Origin: a virus
Virus record (IMG/VR): IMGVR_UViG_3300031963_000020
Span: 84,341 to 148,340 of that record
Reading direction: 5' to 3' (one strand)
DNA length: 64,000 bases
The notes under the pieces are model-generated. The model was not told the DNA's origin and did not search any database. It saw only the letters and a program-made list of their open reading frames with translations. Shown one piece after another: positions 15,844 through 25,679 of the stretch (positions are counted from its first letter, which is position 1; each line of letters begins with the position of its first letter). The position numbers were made by a program, and so were the translations under genes.

Positions 15844-15870
15844 AAACAAAGTAGACAACTTGTTGGTGAA

Positions 15871-15878
15871 TATTTATA
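15871..15878 (+). promoter_or_regulatory. Putative late promoter core TATTTATA
   Basis: Intergenic, 10 nt before the ATG at 15889. Confidence 0.4.
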
Positions 15879-15888
15879 TTAGAATACT

Positions 15889-16620
15889 ATGTTAAGATTT
15901 TTTCCGTATAGAACATTTAGTTCGTCATTTGCATTCACGGGGTCCGCAGCACAAACTGCATCATTCGTGCTGTCTGGAACCACCGCATCGTTTTCACTAA
16001 CTGGTGGTGGTCCAACTGGTCCTGTTGGGCAAACGTCGGTAGTACAAGGTATTACAGGTGTATCAGGACCAACAGGTATAGGTCCAACAGGTCCACGTGG
16101 CACCACAGGTCCAACAGGCCCAAGATCAGCAACAGGTCCAACAGGACCAACTGGTATTACAGGACCAACTGGCGCTACAGGAGCAACTGGAGCTGCATCA
16201 ACTGGTCCAACAGGACCAATAGGAGTTTCAGGTAGTACAGGTCCAACAGGACCAACAGGTGCAACAGGTATTATCGGTATCACAGGTGCAACTGGTCCGA
16301 CAGGAGCAACAGGTCCAAGTGGTCCAACAGGTATTCAAGGTATTGCAGGGCCGCAAGGTGTTACTGGTGCTACGGGTCCAACTGGTGCAATTGGTGTCGC
16401 AGTATCAGGTATCCAAGGTCCAACAGGTGTAACAGGGCCGTCAGGTCCATTTGGTTCTTCTGGTCCACAAGGTACAATTGGTGTTACAGGTCCAACAGGA
16501 CCAACAGGTGCACAAGGAACCGCATTTACAGGGCCAACAGGTGCAACAGGTGCAACTGGTGCTACGGGTCCAACAGGAGCTGTGGGAGCTACTGGTCCAA
16601 CTGGTGCGAACACACCATAA
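15889..16620 (+). CDS. Collagen-like protein with N-terminal FFP motif
   Basis: MLRFFPY..SSSFA..TASF leader, then about 200 aa of G-X-Y to the C-terminus. Confidence 0.8.
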
Positions 16621-16635
16621 TAGAGAGAAAGTGTT

Positions 16636-18279
16636 ATGACGTTTAAATTTTTTCCGTTCGGTGTACCAACTACTAGTTCGTTTGCAATAGGAGTCGGAGT
16701 AACAGCTACCGCATCTATTGCAATTAATAGTGGTTCTGCGTTCTCTACGGCGTCATACGCACTGGGTGGGTCCACGGGTGCCACAGGTCCAAGTGGTCCG
16801 CAAGGAGCAACAGGTCCAACAGGTCCAACGGGTCCAACAGGCATTTCTGGATCAACTGGTGTTTTGGGTACTTCTGGTTCAACAGGACCACAAACGTCAG
16901 GGTCAACAGGTCCGACTGGACCAAGTGGTATTACTGGAGCAACAGGTCCAACAGGACCAACTGGTATTACGGGTTCTACGGGTGTAATAGGTATTACAGG
17001 ACCATCTGGTATTCGTGGTGCAACAGGTGCAACTGGAGCAACAGGTCCAACAGGCCCAACAGGTAGTGTTGGTATAACTGCTGGTATCATAGGTGTATCA
17101 GGTGTTACAGGCCCAACTGGTTCATCTGGTCCAACTGGTGTACAAGGAAGCACGGGTCCAACTGGTGTGGGGCCAACTGGAGCAACAGGTGCAACGGGTC
17201 CATCTGGTTCAGCAGGACCAACAGGACCAGTGGGACCAACAGGAGCAACTGGTGCAATCGGACCATCTGGATCTTCTGGTCCAAATACATTCGGAATAGT
17301 TGGTATAACTGGAGCAACTGGTCCTACTGGTGTTATCGGACCAACGGGACCACAAGGAAACGCTGGTCGAGCTGTATTTTTCATAACAGGATCATGTAAT
17401 CAAACACATTCCGATATCACCGTTCCTCACAGTGACGTTGCAGCAAGTCATACTGATATCGCAGCAGCACACACAGATACTACCATTAATGCATCACATA
17501 GTGACATTGTTACCACAACACCAGCATCACATACAGATAATACTACACCATTCGTAAATACGACTATTAACGCATCACATAGTGACACAACAATTAATGC
17601 ATCACATAGTGATATTGCGCATAGTAATATTACAATTAACGCCGCACATACTGATAATACCACACCATTTAATAATATCGCATTTACTAATATTGCAAAA
17701 TCACATACGGATATTTCACACAGCAATATATCACATACGAATATCGGAGCAGCACATACAGATAATACTACACCATTTAATAATATCGCGTTTAGTAATA
17801 TTGCATTCACAAATACCACTATACCATTTAGTAACATAGGATTTAGTAATTCGTATACTCCACATTCAAACATTGCTAAAGGTGCAGTTCATAAAGACGA
17901 TTACGGTCCACCAGCACATACAAATAGTACAACACCACATAGTAATATTGCATTCTCAAACACAGGATTCTCTAACTCGTATACTCCACATACAAACGTG
18001 GGTCATACGGATATTGCGTTCTCTAATACAGGATTTAGTAATAGTTATACTCCACATACTAATATTGGTTCAGCTCACACCAACACTACAATCAACGCAT
18101 CACACACAGATAATTACACGGCACATCAAAACGTAGCGCATGGAGATATACCGTTCGTGAATAGTTATACACCGGCACAATGTTCGCAATGTCCTGGTGG
18201 AGATCCGTCTGAATGTGATTCGTTCTGTGAATGTTATCCAAACTGTGGTTGCTTCGGTAATACGTGCATCGGTATATAA
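16636..18279 (+). CDS. Collagen + 38 x [HF]-x-[DN] repeat + 8-Cys tip protein (zipper chain C)
   Basis: MTFKFFPFG leader; G-X-Y to about aa 244; repeat array aa 258-509; C-terminus CSQC...CDSFCEC..NCGC....C. Confidence 0.85.
17407..18162 (+). repeat. [HF]-x-[DN] motif array (38 motifs, spacings 5/7/9/11 aa)
   Basis: Hand-parsed from translation ([21 protein letters not shown] ... HGDIP FVN). Confidence 0.9.
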
Positions 18280-18305
18280 TAAATGTTTATAATAGGGAAT
18301 AAATA

Positions 18306-19082
18306 ATGCCAGGTCCAACACATACAAATATAGGCCACTCCGATATAGCGTTTGAGAATGTCTACGCTGCGCATACTGATTTTACACAAAATCCGGCACA
18401 CACTGACAATACCACACCATTTAATAATATTGCAGCAGCTCATACCAATATCGCTCATAGTAATCAGGCATTTCTTAATACTTCATTTAGTAATATAGCA
18501 AAATCACACACCAATGTATCACATACAAATATTGGGCATACAGACGGTACGGCAGCACATACAGACAACTATTCACCAGCATCGCATTTAGATAATACTA
18601 GTGCACACTCAAATATCGCAGCAGCTCATACAAATATTGCACATAGTAATATAGCAACATCACACACAGATATATCTCACTCAAATATATCTCATACTAA
18701 CATCGGTGCATCACACACTGACAATACCACACCATTTAACAATATTGCGTTTAGTAATATTGGGTTCGTAAACACCACTATTCCACATACTAATATTGGT
18801 CACACTAATATAGGTGCAGCGCATTCAGATAATACAACACCAGCAGATCACAGCGATATCGCATTTAGTAATATTACGATTAACGCAAGTCACACGGATA
18901 TTACAATCAACGCAAGTCACACGGATATTGCAGCATCACATACCGATACTACCATTAACGCATCACACACGAATATAGTAAGTACCACTCCAGCTTCACA
19001 TACCGACAGTACAACACCATTTACAAATAGTACTACACCACACTCAAATGTTGCGGCCGCTCACAGTAACGCATTCCTATAA
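18306..19082 (+). CDS. Pure [HF]-x-[DN] repeat protein, 38 motifs (zipper chain D, mirror partner of 16636)
   Basis: Almost entirely HTN/HTD/HSN/FSN units; AGGGA SD-like element upstream. Confidence 0.85.
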   Translation: MPGPTHTNIGHSDIAFENVYAAHTDFTQNPAHTDNTTPFNNIAAAHTNIAHSNQAFLNTSFSNIAKSHTNVSHTNIGHTDGTAAHTDNYSPASHLDNTSAHSNIAAAHTNIAHSNIATSHTDISHSNISHTNIGASHTDNTTPFNNIAFSNIGFVNTTIPHTNIGHTNIGAAHSDNTTPADHSDIAFSNITINASHTDITINASHTDIAASHTDTTINASHTNIVSTTPASHTDSTTPFTNSTTPHSNVAAAHSNAFL

Positions 19083-19088
19083 TACACT

Positions 19089-19952
19089 ATGTCGCAATTT
19101 TTTCCACTAGGTACACCAACAACTGCAAGTACAGCACTTATCAGTAGTTTAGCATTTACCGCAACGTATGCTGTGAATGTGAATGTGTTGACAGCATCAT
19201 ATGGTCCTGGACCAACTGGACCACAAGGTGATAAAGGACCAACAGGACCACAAGGTGCAACTGGATTGGCAGGGTCAGGTTCTACAGGACCAACGGGCGC
19301 AACAGGTCCAACTGGGCTAACTAGTTCAGGTCCAACAGGTCCAACAGGACCGCAAGGTGTAATCGGTATTACTGGTATTACAGGCCCAACAGGTGTCACA
19401 GGTTCTACAGGCCCAACAGGTCCAATAGGAATTACTGGTGTAATTGGTGTTACAGGTATTTCTGGTGTAACTGGTATTGCTTCATTTACTTCGGGTTCCA
19501 CAGGCGCTACTGGGCCAACTGGAGCAACAGGTGCTACTGGTGTGGTGGGTATTACTGGTGCAACTGGTATTATTGGAATCACAGGACCAACAGGATTGAC
19601 TAATTTGGTGGGCATTACAGGTCCAACAGGTCCAATAGGATTACCAACCACGGGTTCTACAGGTCCAAGTGGTCCACAAGGAGCAACTGGTGTTGTAGGT
19701 ACTGGTGGTGTTTCTGCAGGAGCGGCGGCATCTGGAGTCATCGGTATTACGGGTATTACTGGTGTACAAGGTACCACAGGACCGCAAGGAAGTCGTGGTG
19801 TGGACGCCGAATGTCCAGCAGGATTTGTAACCTGTACGGAAGGGGCTCCGTCATCGGGGTCAAATACATATACAAACCCAAATAGTAGTATATATTCTGT
19901 GGTTTGTGCCGCAAGACCAGTAGGTTGTTTAGGAACATTTACGTGTGTATAA
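19089..19952 (+). CDS. Collagen-like protein with FFP leader and 5-Cys C-terminal domain
   Basis: MSQFFPLG leader; G-X-Y to about aa 237; ECPAGFVTC...VVC....GC....TCV. Confidence 0.8.
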
Positions 19953-19984
19953 CGTTATTTTATAAGTAAAGGTATGGAAAATAC

Positions 19985-20002
19985 TACTTATATAGAGGTA
20001 GA
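19985..20002 (+). promoter_or_regulatory. Second copy of TACTTATATAGAGGTAGA element
   Basis: Identical to 97-114; upstream of GGAG SD and ATG 20025. Confidence 0.55.
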
Positions 20003-20024
20003 CGTTATGTGGAGAGTTTAATAT

Positions 20025-21218
20025 ATGGCTAAAGCACCTGGTAGTATTTGGGTAGATGGTGAAACCTTTAGATTTATTGACGCAACTGGAAACGAGTACT
20101 ATTACACTGGTACTGCGGGGTCTAGTCCTGCGGGAGCTAAGGCTGGTTCAATTTGGGTAGACGGAAATGATTTTCATTATATTTCTGCTACTGGTGTTGA
20201 CCGTACAATTGCATACACCGATTTGGGTGTAGCAGCGGGATCAAAACCAGGTTCAGTATGGGTGCAAACCACATTCTGGCAATGGATATCATCGGCAGGA
20301 AACGCTCGTCGTGGTCACACCGACGTAACAGCAGCACACACCGACAATACCACCCCAGCATCTCACACAGATATTGCATTCGTTAATACTACAATTAACG
20401 CGGCACACACAGATACTACAATCAACGCAAGCCATACAGATATAGCAAAAGCACACACGGATAACACAACACCAAATAGTCACACGGACAACACTACTCC
20501 GTTCAATAATATTGCGTTCGTTAATACTACAATCAATGCCGCTCACACGGATAATACAACGAACGCAAGCCATACAGATATAGCAAAAGCACACACGGAT
20601 AACACAACACCAAATAGTCATACTAACAGCTATACTCCACATAGTAATGTCGCACACACCAATATTGGTGCAGCGCACACGGACAACACTACTCCGTTTA
20701 ATAATATCGCATTCACTAACACCTATATTGGTAACAGTCACACCAACAGTTATACTCCACACAGTAATGTCGCACACACCAATATTGGTGCAGCGCACAC
20801 GGACAACACTACTCCGTTTAATAATATAGCATTTACCAATTCATATACAGGTAATAATCACACTAACAATTACACACCACACACCAATATCGGTCACAGT
20901 AATATCGGTCATACTAATATCGGATTTAGTAACATAGCATTTAGTAATATTGGATTTACCAATACAACTATCAATGCATCACACACAAATATCAGTCATA
21001 GTAATATTGGTGTATCGCATACAAATATCGGTCATAGTAATGTTGGATTTAGTAATTCGTATACTGGACACACAAACATTGCACATAGTAATATAGGCGT
21101 ATCGCATACAAATATTGGACATAGTAATGTTGGATTTAGTAATTCGTATACAGGATTTGTAAATTCTTACACACCACAAAATCACACAAATTCGTATCAG
21201 GGTGGTCCTTCAGCCTAA
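20025..21218 (+). CDS. Three GS[IV]WV repeats + 44 x [HF]-x-[DN] repeat protein (zipper chain A)
   Basis: N-terminal 97 aa with PGSIWVDG/AGSIWVDG/PGSVWVQ; array from aa 98 (nt 20316). Confidence 0.85.
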   Translation: MAKAPGSIWVDGETFRFIDATGNEYYYTGTAGSSPAGAKAGSIWVDGNDFHYISATGVDRTIAYTDLGVAAGSKPGSVWVQTTFWQWISSAGNARRGHTDVTAAHTDNTTPASHTDIAFVNTTINAAHTDTTINASHTDIAKAHTDNTTPNSHTDNTTPFNNIAFVNTTINAAHTDNTTNASHTDIAKAHTDNTTPNSHTNSYTPHSNVAHTNIGAAHTDNTTPFNNIAFTNTYIGNSHTNSYTPHSNVAHTNIGAAHTDNTTPFNNIAFTNSYTGNNHTNNYTPHTNIGHSNIGHTNIGFSNIAFSNIGFTNTTINASHTNISHSNIGVSHTNIGHSNVGFSNSYTGHTNIAHSNIGVSHTNIGHSNVGFSNSYTGFVNSYTPQNHTNSYQGGPSA

Positions 21219-21238
21219 TGCATGAAAAGGAATAATAT

Positions 21239-22144
21239 ATGAATCATAGTAATTCGACAACACCAGCATCACATACGAACATCGGTGCATCACATACTAA
21301 TATCGGGTTTAGTAATGTGGGGTTTAGTAATAGTTATACTCCATTTTCAAATGTTGGGTTCGGTAATGTCAATGCATCACATACTGATATTGGATTTAGT
21401 AATGTGGGATTTGCAAATTCTTACACACCATTTAGTAATGTAGGGTTTTCCAATAGTTACACACCAAATTCACACACTAATATTGCACACAGCAATATTG
21501 GTCATAGTAATATTGGATTTAATAATATTGCGTTTAGTAATATCGCATTTGGTAATATTGCAAGAACACATACCGATAACACTACAAATGCAAGTCATAC
21601 CAACATTGGTCATACAAATATTGGTGCTGCACACACGAATAACACCACACCATTTAATAATATAGCGTTTAGTAATATTGCGAAGGCACACACAGATAAC
21701 ACTACAAATGCAAGTCATACCAATATCGCGCATACAAATATTGGTGCTGCACATACGGATAACACCACACCATTTAATAATATAGCGTTTAGTAATATTG
21801 CGAAGGCACATACGGACAATACTACAATTGCCTCACACACGGACAATTACACTCCGCATACAAACACTACAATTAATGCGGCACATACCGACAATACAAC
21901 ACCAGCATCACATACGGATATCGCACATACTAATATTGCTGCAGCACATACGGACAATACTACTAACGCAGCCCATACGGACAATTACACCCCGCATACA
22001 AACACTACAATTAATGCCGCACACACGGATACCACAATCAACGCAAGTCATACCGACATTGCGCACACTAATACAACAATTAATGCTGCACACACGGATA
22101 ACACCACACCACATAGCGACCAACCAGTATTTGTTGGTCCATAA
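21239..22144 (+). CDS. Pure [HF]-x-[DN] repeat protein, 44 motifs (zipper chain B, mirror partner of 20025)
   Basis: AAGGA SD at 21227-21231; ends HSDQPVFVGP. Confidence 0.85.
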   Translation: MNHSNSTTPASHTNIGASHTNIGFSNVGFSNSYTPFSNVGFGNVNASHTDIGFSNVGFANSYTPFSNVGFSNSYTPNSHTNIAHSNIGHSNIGFNNIAFSNIAFGNIARTHTDNTTNASHTNIGHTNIGAAHTNNTTPFNNIAFSNIAKAHTDNTTNASHTNIAHTNIGAAHTDNTTPFNNIAFSNIAKAHTDNTTIASHTDNYTPHTNTTINAAHTDNTTPASHTDIAHTNIAAAHTDNTTNAAHTDNYTPHTNTTINAAHTDTTINASHTDIAHTNTTINAAHTDNTTPHSDQPVFVGP

Positions 22145-22151
22145 TTAGGGC

Positions 22152-22180
22152 TTGACAAGTGGTGTGCGGTGTTGTATATT
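22152..22180 (+). promoter_or_regulatory. Sigma70-type promoter TTGACA-N17-TATATT upstream of radical SAM gene
   Basis: Perfect -35, 17-nt spacer, intergenic. Confidence 0.75.
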
Positions 22181-22209
22181 ATAAAATGATTTATTAATCA
22201 CGAGGTTAT

Positions 22210-23529
22210 ATGACTATTGAATTAGAACCAGTTGGTGTAGTATGTAATTTAAGTTGCCCGTATTGTTACGAACATCCCATGCGAGATGCGGGTAATTTCC
22301 GACATAAAACATATTCCGTTGAAAAAATGTTAGAAGGTCTTGCCAAAGAAGGTGGTAATTTTACCCTCTTTGGTGGTGAACCATTATTAACTGATATTGA
22401 CGATTTAGAAACTATTTTTAAGTGGGGGTTTGACCGATATGGATTTAATGGTATTCAAACAAATGGTGTTTTAATTACTGACCGCCACATAGAAATGTTT
22501 AAGAAGTACAGAGTTCACGTCGGAATATCACTTGATGGTCCTGACGAAATGAACGACACGCGTTGGGCAGGGTCATTAGAAAAGACCAGAGAGGCTACCC
22601 GCAAGTCATTTGAAGCTATTAAAAAGTGTCTTGACAACAAGCTCTCACTTGGTTTAATTATTACTATCCATAAGAAGAACGGATTACCAAAATATCGTGA
22701 ACGTTTCAAGGCATGGATTAAAGAACTTCAGTCGTGGGGTGTTGATGGAGCAAGACTTCATCCACTAGAGATTGACCATAGTTCTGTTGGTGAAACATTA
22801 GCTCTTACACCAGAACAAAATATTGAGTTCCTATTAGATATGTGGGACTTTGAAATCAGTGAACTAAATGTTCCTGGTAAGAAATCATTTCAGTTTGATA
22901 TCTTCCGTGACGTAGAATATATGTTGCGTGCAGACGATGCAAACGCAACCTGTACATTTATGACTTGTGACCCATATACCACGCATGCGGTGCAAGGTAT
23001 TGACTCGCAAGGTAATAAAGCAAACTGCGGTCGTGGTAACAAAGAAGGTATTAACTGGATTAAAGCCGATGTTGACGGATTTGAACGTCAGATGGCACTA
23101 TATAATACACCACAAGAACATGGTGGATGTCAGGGGTGCCGATTCTTTATTATGTGTAAGTCACACTGCCCAGGTACAGGTGCAGATATGGACTGGAGAA
23201 ATAGAACGGATACCTGTATGAATTGGAAGGTAGCGTTTAGTATCTATGAACGAATGATGGTTGAACGTGGTGAGATGCCATTATCTCTAGACCCAAAATT
23301 AAAGAGATATGAAGATATTTTGATGTATGGTTATAGTAGAGGTGCAGAACTTAGATTAGAACACATTAAAAAGTATCTTGACCCAAATATTGGATTTGAT
23401 ATTGAAAGATACATCCAATCATATTTGATGAACCAAGCTATGGGTGGACACAAGCCACACGCAGACCATACAGATGAAACAGGAAGATACGCATTAGAGT
23501 TTAAAGAGAAGTACGGATATTTACCTTAA
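22210..23529 (+). CDS. Radical SAM enzyme with SPASM-type C-terminal domain (peptide/protein maturase-like)
   Basis: CNLSCPYC (CxxxCxxC), FGGEPLL, QTNG, GISLDGP; C-terminal CTFMTC...NC...CQGCRFFIMCKSHCP...C; tail HADHTD. Confidence 0.92.
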   Translation: MTIELEPVGVVCNLSCPYCYEHPMRDAGNFRHKTYSVEKMLEGLAKEGGNFTLFGGEPLLTDIDDLETIFKWGFDRYGFNGIQTNGVLITDRHIEMFKKYRVHVGISLDGPDEMNDTRWAGSLEKTREATRKSFEAIKKCLDNKLSLGLIITIHKKNGLPKYRERFKAWIKELQSWGVDGARLHPLEIDHSSVGETLALTPEQNIEFLLDMWDFEISELNVPGKKSFQFDIFRDVEYMLRADDANATCTFMTCDPYTTHAVQGIDSQGNKANCGRGNKEGINWIKADVDGFERQMALYNTPQEHGGCQGCRFFIMCKSHCPGTGADMDWRNRTDTCMNWKVAFSIYERMMVERGEMPLSLDPKLKRYEDILMYGYSRGAELRLEHIKKYLDPNIGFDIERYIQSYLMNQAMGGHKPHADHTDETGRYALEFKEKYGYLP

Positions 23530-23547
23530 TATAAAGAGGATACGTAG

Positions 23548-23946
23548 ATGATACCAGGATTACACGCAGACCACGTTGACACATCGGGTGCATATGGTCA
23601 AAAATTTGAAGTCGTAAAAGACTTGTTAGAAAAAGGAATGTTGAAAGAAATTCCAGAAGAATTCCGTGATAAAGGAAATACTTCCGAAGAAGTTCCGGTT
23701 ATTACTAATTCACAAACAGTTGTTGGTAATCAGCAATCGGGATGGGATATGTCTCGTGACCATGCCGACCACGTTGACGAAACTGGTCGTTATGCACAAT
23801 CGTATATGGAACGATTTGGTTCGGATTCCTTAAATAATAACGAAATTTCACAAGGAACTACAGAACAACAGCAAGATACTGGTAATTCTTGGAAGTCTTT
23901 CTTGAAGAAGATTATTGCAGAAGAAAAGAGTAAGTTGAAGGTTTAA
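23548..23946 (+). CDS. Small protein with two HADHVD motifs
   Basis: HADHVDTSGAYG and HADHVDETGRYA match the tail of the upstream radical SAM; GAGGA SD. Confidence 0.7.
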   Translation: MIPGLHADHVDTSGAYGQKFEVVKDLLEKGMLKEIPEEFRDKGNTSEEVPVITNSQTVVGNQQSGWDMSRDHADHVDETGRYAQSYMERFGSDSLNNNEISQGTTEQQQDTGNSWKSFLKKIIAEEKSKLKV

Positions 23947-23965
23947 TTTAAACAACGAAGGGGTT

Positions 23966-25447
23966 ATGCAAAGAATAAAGCATGTCTTGCCTGATTGGAC
24001 TCGGGTGCAGTGGACTTCTATAGAAAATAGAAACAAATACGAACCTATCATTGCGTCTATCAATAACGCATGGAAACAGATTGAACGTATGTCGGTTGTT
24101 CACGATATTCGTCCATCTTCACTAGATATATTATCACCAGAAGAACTCATAAATTTAACTGCGGAATACGAAAAACATGGAGTACTCGTAGTTCCTATTG
24201 GTAAAGAAGGAAAAGCAGGAACTTACTCGTCTACAAGTACACCATATAATGGTGGTGATTACAATATTCGTGTTGTATTCACAAAGTCTGAAGCTATAGC
24301 AGATGAATGGTTTAATATCTGGCAAGCAGAACCCCGCATTCGTGACCGTGAGGCTGGTCGTTTACTTGGGTATCCTACCTGCTGCACCAATCATTTTATG
24401 AAGTATTGGGTAGACCAGGAATTTGTTGATACTACGTGGACGATGGCAGCGGAAAATATGCAGTTAAATGATGACGATGAAACGCATCGTACTATTCATA
24501 TTAAGGCAGATACTCCACCTGAAGCAAACATAATGTGGCGTTGGCAAGGTGTACGATTGGTATCACATCTTCCGTGTTCGTTTGATTGCAAGGCAACAGA
24601 AGAACTTGGTATGAAGATGGCAGAACTTGGTCGTACACTTGGGTTTGAAAAAGAAGTAAATTGGATATATGAATTACTTTCGTGGCCTGTTGAATGGTCA
24701 GCACTGCATGGTATCGCAGAAATCCGTACACCAATCAACAAGATTTCATCCAGAACTGATATGACCCCGTGGAAGTATGTGGTACAGAAGCATGCACACG
24801 AATATCCTATTGATGGTATGTCTGGTATAACGTATCCGTATAATCAAAAGAAAATTAAAGTCAAACCCGTCACAAAAACTATCTCGTTCGCTAAATCTCT
24901 TGAAGATACTTCCGTATGGGAAGAAAACGGATTTAGTAATAAGGAAGCTATGGATCACTTCCACCAAGTTATCATTGACGCAATCGGGGATATGAAATAT
25001 ATTCCTGGTGGTAATGTCCTCGACCTCGGTTGTGGAAATGGTGTCTTGTTAGGTCGTGTAGTTGGAGACAGATTTGATCTCATCCCACACGGTGTTGAAG
25101 CAGACCGTCAACGTTGTATGTCCGCAGCAACTACCATCCATTGGGGTGTCTTTACAATGGGTAGCATCTTTGACCTTAATACGTGGAAGGAAGATACATA
25201 TAGTTTGGTACTTTTGATGCCAGGCAGACTTCTTGAAACCACACGTGTAGTATCAGAACAAGTGCGTAAGCAACTCTATGACAAGACAGACCTTGTTCTT
25301 ATCAACCTAACTTGTGATTGGACACAACAATATGGCTCGATTGAGAATATTATGAAGGTCACAGGTCTTGACCAAGAATGGGAACCAGCAGGTAAGTTAA
25401 TCCATCGTCAAGATGATATGGCACAACTTTTCAAGCGTAAGGTGTAA
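23966..25447 (+). CDS. DUF483-like domain fused to class I SAM-dependent methyltransferase
   Basis: GRLLGYPTCCTNHF and HLPCSFDC in the N-terminal part; VLDLGCGNG motif I in the C-terminal part. Confidence 0.65.
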   Translation: MQRIKHVLPDWTRVQWTSIENRNKYEPIIASINNAWKQIERMSVVHDIRPSSLDILSPEELINLTAEYEKHGVLVVPIGKEGKAGTYSSTSTPYNGGDYNIRVVFTKSEAIADEWFNIWQAEPRIRDREAGRLLGYPTCCTNHFMKYWVDQEFVDTTWTMAAENMQLNDDDETHRTIHIKADTPPEANIMWRWQGVRLVSHLPCSFDCKATEELGMKMAELGRTLGFEKEVNWIYELLSWPVEWSALHGIAEIRTPINKISSRTDMTPWKYVVQKHAHEYPIDGMSGITYPYNQKKIKVKPVTKTISFAKSLEDTSVWEENGFSNKEAMDHFHQVIIDAIGDMKYIPGGNVLDLGCGNGVLLGRVVGDRFDLIPHGVEADRQRCMSAATTIHWGVFTMGSIFDLNTWKEDTYSLVLLMPGRLLETTRVVSEQVRKQLYDKTDLVLINLTCDWTQQYGSIENIMKVTGLDQEWEPAGKLIHRQDDMAQLFKRKV

Positions 25448-25448
25448 T

Positions 25449-25679
25449 ATGACAGAAGAAATCAAAGAAGCACCAGTTCCAATAGCAATTCGTCAATTAG
25501 TTGATTTACATAACACCCGTATCCGTGAATACCAACAACGTTCATTACAAGAACTTCAAGATGCAAACATTGAACTAATGTTAATGATGGGTTTAAGCCC
25601 ACAAGACGGATGGCGATTAGATATGGAAACAATGAAATACATTAAAGTTCCAACAGATGGAAATACACAAGTCGGCTGA
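25449..25679 (+). CDS. Hypothetical protein
   Basis: ATG directly after the stop of 23966, with AAGG upstream. Confidence 0.5.
   Translation: MTEEIKEAPVPIAIRQLVDLHNTRIREYQQRSLQELQDANIELMLMMGLSPQDGWRLDMETMKYIKVPTDGNTQVG

Follow-up and report, generated by a model that had tools for sequence, protein, structure and literature searches.

A radical SAM cassette in a phage tail-fibre block, apparently aimed at mirrored arrays of aromatic-x-Asp/Asn motifs

Introduction

In this study, we examined a block of tail-fibre and enzyme genes in IMG/VR virus record IMGVR_UViG_3300031963_000020, where four proteins carrying dense arrays of the triplet [HF]-x-[DN] stand beside a radical S-adenosylmethionine (SAM) enzyme of SPASM type and a protein of the DUF483 family. 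The window, meaning the whole stretch analysed, is the final 64 kb of this 148-kb viral record, whose completeness is estimated at 72%; genes are referred to by their first nucleotide in it. We found the enzyme, DUF483 and the array proteins to be genetically coupled, a link that is firmly supported across viral and bacterial relatives. The array triplets are very probably the substrate of the enzyme, and by analogy with known peptide crosslinks there is an even chance that the product is a ring-to-C-beta cyclophane.

Radical SAM maturases are known for small peptide natural products, and to our knowledge no virion protein is built with them. The logic of a radical SAM enzyme combined with a repeat motif is already known; new here are the enzyme family, its DUF483 partner, the mirror design of the arrays and the apparent use on virion fibre proteins at such a scale.

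Results

Coupling of the enzyme, DUF483 and the arrays

An earlier note on this DNA had read the cassette as aimed at the neighbouring repeat proteins and had proposed looking for co-occurrence of the enzyme with [HF]x[DN]-type arrays across genomes. That reading is now strongly supported by co-inheritance seen from both sides, by varied gene orders, by gene fusions and by the match of motifs.

From the side of the enzyme, tblastn against the phage collection gave full-length relatives in three Thermus phages only (phiLo, Cumys and phiMa; 45-52% identity, 45% for Cumys), and a 10-kb megablast query of this collection had no match. Another 36 loci came from IMG/VR, public assemblies and representative genomes, and 38 family loci were compared in all. 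At 30 of these a dense aromatic-x-D/N array adjoins the enzyme, and 5 more are cut by a contig end on the expected array side. The adjoining arrays reach 11-21 motifs per 80 aa, whereas none of the 71 control loci with other SPASM enzymes holds an open reading frame with 10 motifs per 80 aa (30/38 versus 0/71).

From the side of the arrays, a profile of the N-terminal domain of 20025 (the N-domain) recovered 35 viral loci, 27 of them outside the clade of the window. Wherever downstream sequence was present, a family enzyme followed (24/24, mostly as the next gene), and DUF483 was found in 22/24; the other 3 of the 27 loci end inside or right after the array gene. The enzymes at these N-domain loci score 240-661 bits against the family profile, compared with at most 94 bits for non-family enzymes.

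An illustration comes from Cumys, in which a 343-aa protein lies directly 5′ of the radical SAM gene and DUF483 directly 3′ of it. The N-terminus of this protein matches the N-domain of 20025, the rest consists of H-x-D repeats with every His in a motif (54/54), and its gene stands within the tail module. phiLo encodes three H-x-D-rich proteins on the opposite strand, a few genes off, and the same trio of genes recurs in a T4-like metagenomic phage and in a Limnochordales prophage. Gene order varies by clade, being array, radical SAM, DUF483 or array, DUF483, radical SAM, and a few loci hold two copies of the enzyme gene. Two paralogous family genes were seen in L134, L139 and L023/L138, and L023 also has two DUF483 genes beside its array protein.

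Bacterial members of the family (Acidobacteriota, Chloroflexota, Paenibacillus), often fused to DUF483, adjoin H-x-D-repeat peptides of 77-140 aa. Each of the short peptides or frames at L030, L031, L033, L034, L035 and L037 carries 6-23 H-x-D-type motifs, and by their sequence and position they look like an undescribed class of precursors of RiPPs (peptides made on the ribosome and modified after translation) beside their maturase. A separate candidate, a 2OG-oxygenase in 225-229 aa open reading frames of L023 and L038 bearing H-x-D and H-x-H-R strings, was rejected, as Pfam found nothing there.

At two bacterial loci the arrangement is of another kind. In Mucilaginibacter (L025:4894-11439) and Fulvivirga (L036:4841-10867), the enzyme lies 3′ of a protein of about 1040 aa that has no dense array; in L025 this protein shows sparse H-V/L-D motifs only, at its C-terminus, and the enzyme stands 5′ of a P-loop kinase-like protein. 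From these sequences, the two loci may represent a divergent subtype with another substrate.

Motif composition of the array proteins

The earlier note counted 164 motifs in the four repeat proteins, and our recount agrees: [HF]-x-[DN] occurs 166 times in 16636, 18306, 20025 and 21239 (39 + 38 + 45 + 44), two of these lying outside the arrays, and the array of 16636 itself holds 38. As shuffled array regions give means of 7.5-9.9 motifs per protein (standard deviation about 2.5, maximum 20), the excess is far beyond chance. Nearly every His is committed to H-x-[DN], with 25/25, 29/29, 31/32 and 29/29 in the four proteins (114/115 overall). Of the 52 Phe motifs, 51 read F-x-N, 14 of them in 16636. 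Distances between successive motifs are odd without exception (162/162), taking the values 5, 7, 9 and 11, plus 33 and 81.

This composition extends to the family. Of the 1393 array His residues in 46 non-identical proteins, 1342 (96%) are followed at +2 by D (1179) or N (163), and position 2 of the triplet takes almost any residue, Pro appearing once only. H-x-D is the commonest motif overall, the array of L027, from the T4-like metagenomic phage, is almost wholly F-x-N, and that of the Limnochordales prophage mixes Y-x-D with H-x-D. Motif spacing is 3-5 in the Thermus phages versus 5-11 in the window, so that the conserved unit is the triplet and not a pentapeptide. Since an array of Phe alone cannot be a metal-binding ladder, selection keeps an aromatic ring together with Asp or Asn at i+2. 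Pfam and NCBIfam scans of the array proteins and of the short H-x-D peptides found no curated family.

Outside the triplets, 21239 ends in a conserved H-x-D-Q-P-x-x-V-G tail that is shared by Cumys, L012, L026 and L027, and the N-domain of 20025 (20025-20310), conserved in the 35 viral loci, consists of three GSxWV...Y-x-D..G repeats. An AlphaFold2 model of the hairpin-type relative L027 (345 aa, 13-row alignment) folded the N-domain only, with the entire array below 50 in predicted local distance difference test (pLDDT) and free of secondary structure. The N-domain itself (L027:4163-4462) was predicted to be all-beta, with block pLDDT values of 69-97 over residues 1-100, and its top match in a fold search was the monocot-lectin-like bacteriocin LlpA (Z 5.1, root-mean-square deviation 3.2 over 84 residues). 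This weak resemblance of the model to three-fold beta-prism lectin-like bacteriocins is a lead only.

Mirror-image arrangement

Read backwards, the spacings of 21239 reproduce those of 20025 at 43/43 positions, the motif positions of the two proteins summing to 388 in all 44 rungs. The other pair, 16636 against reversed 18306, agrees at 34/37, compared with about 50% for cross-pairs. In the 82 window rungs of both pairs Phe never stands opposite Phe; at least one H-x-D is held by 30 of the 32 His-His rungs, where Asp is concentrated, and H-x-N by 41 of the 50 Phe-His rungs. Relatives with a single array gene are self-palindromic (101/101 in L009:2680-5289, 39/39 in L010:4510-6186 and 39/43 in L027:4163-5200), a pattern that implies a predicted hairpin or antiparallel homodimer. 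Mirrored spacings of this kind thus suggest that the arrays pair antiparallel, either as two chains or as a hairpin.

The earlier note had proposed an antiparallel register that places each His or Phe opposite the Asn or Asp of the partner, and had suggested that the two chains might be covalently stitched. The register holds as a sequence pattern; the apposition of ring and Asn/Asp and the stitching would go further than that pattern. Complex prediction of the 20025 array (residues 92-397) with 21239 scored 0.00 in both runs, the fold of the partner being itself uncertain, and weighs neither for nor against their pairing.

Features and placement of the radical SAM enzyme

The product of 22210 scores well above the cut-off of 29.5 bits for PF04055. 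Its cluster motif CX3CX2C reads CNLSCPYC at residues 12-19, with C12, C16 and C19 invariant in 22 homologues, and the cysteines CX14GX4C at 253-273, CX2CX5CX3C at 307-320 and C336 are invariant or nearly so. By these cysteine motifs and by alignment to the anaerobic sulfatase maturase (anSME) 4k36, the enzyme is of SPASM type; the Pfam SPASM model gave no match at E < 0.01. The closest solved structures are anSME 4k36/4k37 (E about 4e-10, residues 3-320) and the radical SAM domain of ChlB (E 6.5e-8).

No family reached its cut-off in an NCBIfam scan of the enzyme, and the top matches all fall on the N-terminal core. The anSME model TIGR03942 scored 71.8 bits (cut-off 349) and DynA 69, and the triceptide families followed with YhhB 65 (cut-off 445), AmcB 58.2 (425), GrrM/OscB 48 (310), FxsB 45.1 (370) and XyeB 37.8 (450). 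A library search returned 420 representatives of the family at E <= 1e-30. The family profile separates cleanly, with members at 371 bits or more and all others at 94 or fewer, and identity in representative genomes drops from 39-50% within the family directly to 24%.

A tree was built with controls sorted by NCBIfam into true anSMEs, FxsB and XyeB-like enzymes, the true anSMEs from control loci scoring 405-508 bits. All family members fall together in a single clade (support 100) on a long branch, outside the FxsB/XyeB-like clade and outside a separate anSME clade of 51 rows with support 97; the tree came from a quick search, and its long branches make deep placement unsafe. The earlier note had looked to the cyclophane-forming enzymes for the home of 22210, which was not borne out, and had named clustering with anSMEs as an outcome that would speak against it, which did not occur. 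As neither placement holds, we regard the enzyme as a family of its own. Motif type, Phe or His arrays, gave no clean pattern of subclades in the tree.

Some genes of the family are interrupted by LAGLIDADG homing-endonuclease elements (P0172, P0191 and P0237), and P0191 and P0237 also show weak intein/Hint matches slightly below the Pfam cut-offs.

DUF483, its fusions and the 132-aa protein

The DUF483 match of 23966 spans residues 123-217 and lies just above the gathering cut-off of 25 bits. Fifteen homologues share the motifs GYPxCC and HLPCSFxC, with Cys 139, 140, 204 and 208 invariant. In the methyltransferase half, motif I reads VLDLGCGNG at residue 351, and MetW/MTS matches are weak; this half is fused to DUF483 in the window and is a separate next gene in L026. 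An AlphaFold model of DUF483 reached pLDDT 86.4. Foldseek with this model found nothing at E <= 0.001, the best match being NleE (E 0.08, probability 0.84-0.90, TM 0.25-0.38), and VIA-align gave 2guk at Z 8.7 (106 residues, root-mean-square deviation 3.2) and NleE at Z 5.8 (103 residues, 2.9). NleE is a cysteine methyltransferase and 2guk is listed without function; we rejected naming a function from likeness to either fold, the matches being too weak.

Fusions tie DUF483 closely to the enzyme. Among the best 150 of the 420 representatives, 45 are at least 600 aa long, and 33 of these 45 are fusions of the radical SAM enzyme with DUF483. The unfused enzymes end in at least two H-x-D/N motifs in 48 of 70 cases, the substrate-like tail of the window enzyme lying at 23443-23529. 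In the fusions, DUF483 begins about where the radical SAM profile match stops, leaving little room for such a tail. Because unfused enzymes so often have H-x-D tails and fusions have little room for them, the sequences suggest, if only by inference, that DUF483 is a module gripping H-x-D strands and is recruited in trans by the tails.

The window enzyme itself ends in HADHTDETGRY, and a near-identical string occurs twice in the adjoining 132-aa protein. The two HADHxDxxGxY motifs of that protein are invariant in 7 homologues and are accompanied by a conserved, helix-like C-terminal segment; the protein is confined to the phage clade of the window and has no Pfam or NCBIfam match. Pfam and NCBIfam scans of the cassette found neither a DNA-binding or nucleotide-handling domain nor a sulfatase-like protein.

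One protein of 998 aa (P0122) joins a family enzyme and DUF483 to DUF4213/DUF364, which is annotated as 'putative heavy-metal chelation', and hints that a metal may belong to the system.

Gene block and tail context

The genes of the window lie on the + strand, and the tail module spans 491 to about 31,000 (Table 1). Before the block stand a 1942-aa collagen-like tail-fibre protein and two other giant structural proteins, and 3′ of it follow an Snf2-type helicase, a homologue of baseplate hubs and a protein similar to tape-measure proteins; it is this tail-module context that points to a virion location for the array proteins. The gene order described by the earlier note is exact in its coordinates, including the 65-nt gap (22144 to 22210) before the radical SAM gene, and the succession of radical SAM/SPASM gene, HADHVD protein and methyltransferase fusion was confirmed, with DUF483 as the fusion partner. 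The three collagen-like genes 15889, 16636 and 19089 all exceed the PF01391 cut-off of 27.2 bits.

Table 1 Features of the gene block and of bacterial relatives (window positions, or locus and position)
Feature	Position	Strand	Evidence
Collagen-like protein, 243 aa, opening the fibre block	15889..16620	+	PF01391 79.8 bits
Fibre protein, 547 aa: collagen-like Gly-X-Y region, array (residues 258-480), Cys-rich C-terminus	16636..18279	+	PF01391 83.6 bits
Array-only partner protein, 258 aa, 38 motifs	18306..19082	+	mirrors 16636 array
Collagen-like protein, 287 aa, Cys-containing C-terminal domain, no array	19089..19952	+	PF01391 84.7 bits
Fibre protein, 397 aa: N-domain (residues 1-95), then 44-motif array	20025..21218	+	
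Array-only partner protein, 301 aa, 44 motifs	21239..22144	+	exact mirror of 20025 array
Promoter-like site: TTGACA, 17 nt, TATATT	22152..22180	+	11/12 consensus matches
Radical SAM/SPASM enzyme, 439 aa	22210..23529	+	PF04055 58.3 bits and Cys motifs
Accessory protein, 132 aa, two HADHVD motifs	23548..23946	+	alignment of 7 homologues
DUF483 (about residues 1-300) joined in one protein to class I SAM methyltransferase (about 320-493)	23966..25447	+	PF04467 27.0 bits
Called H-x-D peptide open reading frames, 77-140 aa	L030:7486-7749, L033:7719-7952, L034:7353-7673, L035:10784-11206, L031:7556-7966		
H-x-D-type open frame	L037:7109-7690	-	bacterial family locus

The promoter-like site inside the 65-nt gap is sigma-70-like and the top consensus match in a 10.5-kb region, and the second-best site, with 10/12 matches, lies at 15852-15880, just 5′ of the first collagen-like gene. 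Both are matches to consensus in a region whose total of such sites is no higher than in shuffles, and they are a lead only. The long - strand open reading frames at 16335-17384 and 19061-19777 were rejected as genes, being Pro/Val-rich shadows of Gly-X-Y coding. An 88-aa open reading frame at 25413-25679, which overlaps the DUF483-methyltransferase gene at its end and the Snf2 helicase gene at its start, is kept in all related phages at 39-82% identity.

Discussion

To place these findings in a chemical context, we propose that the tail-fibre module carries its own protein-maturation cassette. The SPASM-type enzyme of the new family and the DUF483 protein would modify the aromatic-x-Asp/Asn triplets after translation, the enzyme abstracting a C-beta hydrogen of the Asp or Asn at position 3 and that carbon being joined to the His or Phe ring at position 1. 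One three-residue cyclophane (-2 Da) would thus form per motif, dozens per chain, and a second mark would afterwards come from the methyltransferase. DUF483 would be an obligate partner, probably holding the H-x-D strand.

As the enzyme forms its own clade, we infer its chemistry. For each of the nearest characterised relatives, anSME, DynA, YhhB and AmcB, the target is the C-beta of a peptide or protein residue, and the cyclophane is our best guess because H-x-X, F-x-N and Y-x-D correspond to triceptide crosslink sites already published. What defines a triceptide is a ring-to-C-beta bond within an aromatic(1)-x-X(3) motif, made by a SPASM radical SAM enzyme; published links join Phe-C4 to Asn-C-beta, Trp-C7 to Asn- or Asp-C-beta, Tyr-C3 to Asp-C-beta, and His-C2 to the C-beta of Ala, Arg or Lys. 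In line with these, Phe favours Asn and Tyr favours Asp in the arrays.

The likeness to triceptide systems (XncB/XyeB, OscB/GrrM, MscB/FxsB, YxdB, HaaB, YhhB, HtkB) therefore includes a SPASM enzyme beside a repeated aromatic-x-X substrate, the use of F-x-N, Y-x-D and a position-1 His as published sites, and, in the bacterial members, RiPP-like short peptides. There are also clear differences: the window enzyme has a presumably obligate DUF483 partner, often fused to the enzyme in the family, its putative substrates are tail-fibre proteins of 258-547 aa with 38-44 mirrored motifs each, and H-x-D and H-x-N are absent among the reported His motifs (HAA, HNR, HTK).

Several points weigh against a cyclophane made on these arrays. 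By sequence, the enzyme lies outside every characterised cyclophane synthase family (XyeB, GrrM/OscB, FxsB, YhhB, AmcB), alone on its long branch, and family-profile scores put anSMEs (62-94 bits) slightly nearer than FxsB (43-55 bits). Three of the 38 family loci (L025, L032 and L036) have no dense array, and the fusion P0122 brings chelation-type domains into the family. H-x-D is a classic metal-binding triplet, the triceptide substrates known so far are small peptides bearing few motifs, and we know of no precedent for an enzyme acting on 40 or more sites of folding, pairing proteins of 258-547 residues.

A sulfatase-maturase type of reaction was also considered. Like the window enzyme, anSMEs combine a SPASM domain with the lack of an N-terminal leader-binding domain, and their target is the C-beta of one residue within a full-length protein. 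The window enzyme differs in its low anSME score, in its place outside the anSME clade and in the lack of a sulfatase-like protein in its cassette. An anSME-like oxidation of Ser or Thr at position 2, where these residues are frequent in the window, was rejected because that position is unconserved family-wide.

Among the alternatives, one that we consider unlikely but best able to survive is that the enzyme acts on the same motifs to give another product, be it C-alpha epimerisation, C-beta methylation or thiolation of Asp/Asn, a change to the His ring or an HxsA-like gain of 8 Da. YydG/EpeE are SPASM enzymes that epimerise C-alpha, and the genetic link to the motifs is equal for this alternative and for the cyclophane. 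With the enzyme outside the known cyclophane synthase families, its chemistry is free to differ; the cassette includes a methyltransferase, and the radical SAM-matured protein of the HXS system carries a modification other than a simple -2 Da crosslink. What favours the cyclophane over these products is the triplet itself: conserved positions 1 and 3 around a free position 2 are precisely what marks a ring-to-C-beta bond from i to i+2, an epimerase or single-residue modifier would not obviously need both positions, and the interchange of His, Phe and Tyr at position 1 fits a reaction on any aromatic ring.

It is improbable that the enzyme instead stitches chains by inter-strand ring-to-C-beta bonds, as a covalent ladder between partners or hairpin arms. 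This idea draws on the mirrored spacings, on the self-palindromic arrays of single-gene relatives and on the avoidance of Phe-Phe rungs in the window, which would mean that the strands co-evolve rung by rung. If it were true, the product would be a covalently laddered rod with bonds at 38 and 44 rungs, a type of crosslink without known counterpart and the first radical-SAM-built structural material in a virus. The mirror pattern, however, shows the pairing of motifs and not atomic contacts or physical register, and the pairing rule lacks generality, as Phe faces Phe freely in L027. The links made by all characterised enzymes of this kind run from i to i+2 within one chain, as the cyclophane would, and the short bacterial H-x-D peptides have no evident mirror partner.

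A third possibility, which we judge highly improbable, is that the arrays are a metal-binding fold or a pentapeptide beta-helix and that the enzyme and DUF483 act elsewhere, for example on DNA. H-x-D is common in metal sites, the needle of the T4 long tail fibre has His-x-His iron sites, Asp gathers in His-His rungs (30/32) and one family enzyme is fused to DUF364/DUF4213; near-all-Phe arrays, however, cannot bind metal, and the swaps of His to Phe (in L027) or Tyr argue against a purely metal-binding role for His. As for pentapeptide repeats, the window arrays share period-5 stretches such as HTNIG-HSNIG-FSNIA, and the F-x-N array of L027 passes a Pfam pentapeptide cut-off (57.1 versus 27 bits). 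The window arrays themselves fail theirs (PF13599 18.7 versus 38 bits; PF01469 19.7 versus 26.4), their spacing of 5, 7, 9 and 11 is irregular for that fold, spacing in the Thermus phages is 3-5, and the conserved unit is the triplet. A DNA target is favoured by cyanobacterial homologues near deazapurine DNA-modification genes (PMC11437467) and by L032 (Microcystaceae), which has no array, whereas the cassette has no DNA-binding or nucleotide-handling domain. Any such reading leaves unexplained both the pairing of enzyme and array in 24/24 informative loci and the short H-x-D peptides beside bacterial enzymes. A metal ladder and a modification of the triplets are nonetheless compatible with each other.

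Two published systems stand close to the modified array proteins that we propose. A literature search for a link between phage fibres and radical SAM enzymes, or for an 'HxD repeat' system, found only a paragraph on Cumys and phiMa, in which a three-gene 'rSAM module' of these Thermus phages was read as DNA modification (Viruses 2024; PMC11437467). That module likewise comprises a radical SAM enzyme, a DUF483 protein and a third protein, whose H-x-D repeats and tail-module site were not reported; the window differs from it in the fusion of DUF483 to a methyltransferase, in having four array proteins and in the extra HADHxD protein. The second is HXS, a bacterial anti-phage system in which the His-Xaa-Ser repeats of HxsA go with the radical SAM enzymes HxsB and HxsC and the partner HxsD, and which has five H-x-S repeats, shows one site of +8 Da and serves to block DNA in the periplasm (PMC13128918). 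Here, too, a whole protein with His-x-X repeats is matured by radical SAM enzymes and a small partner protein, in contrast to the window with its phage structural module and its H/F-x-D/N motifs in the hundreds. At +2 after array His, Ser falls outside the eight commonest residues, so the arrays are not of the HXS kind, and no Hxs model appears among the 25 best of the 53 NCBIfam matches of the enzyme.

Conclusion

In conclusion, if the proposed modification is confirmed, phages would apply anaerobic-type radical chemistry to their adsorption apparatus, with dozens of modified sites on each chain. Such a modification may stiffen fibres or give resistance to heat or protease, and the family includes phages of Thermus, which lives above 60 degrees C. 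Confirmation would also establish a new enzyme family of 420 representative clusters with an obligate DUF483 partner and a simple three-residue recognition unit, which would be attractive for protein stapling at programmed sites, and the mirror arrays would supply a further design rule, for protein rods of two strands. The system is tractable, as two of its phages, Cumys and phiMa, are in culture on Thermus thermophilus HB8 and several of the putative substrates are shorter than 200 residues.

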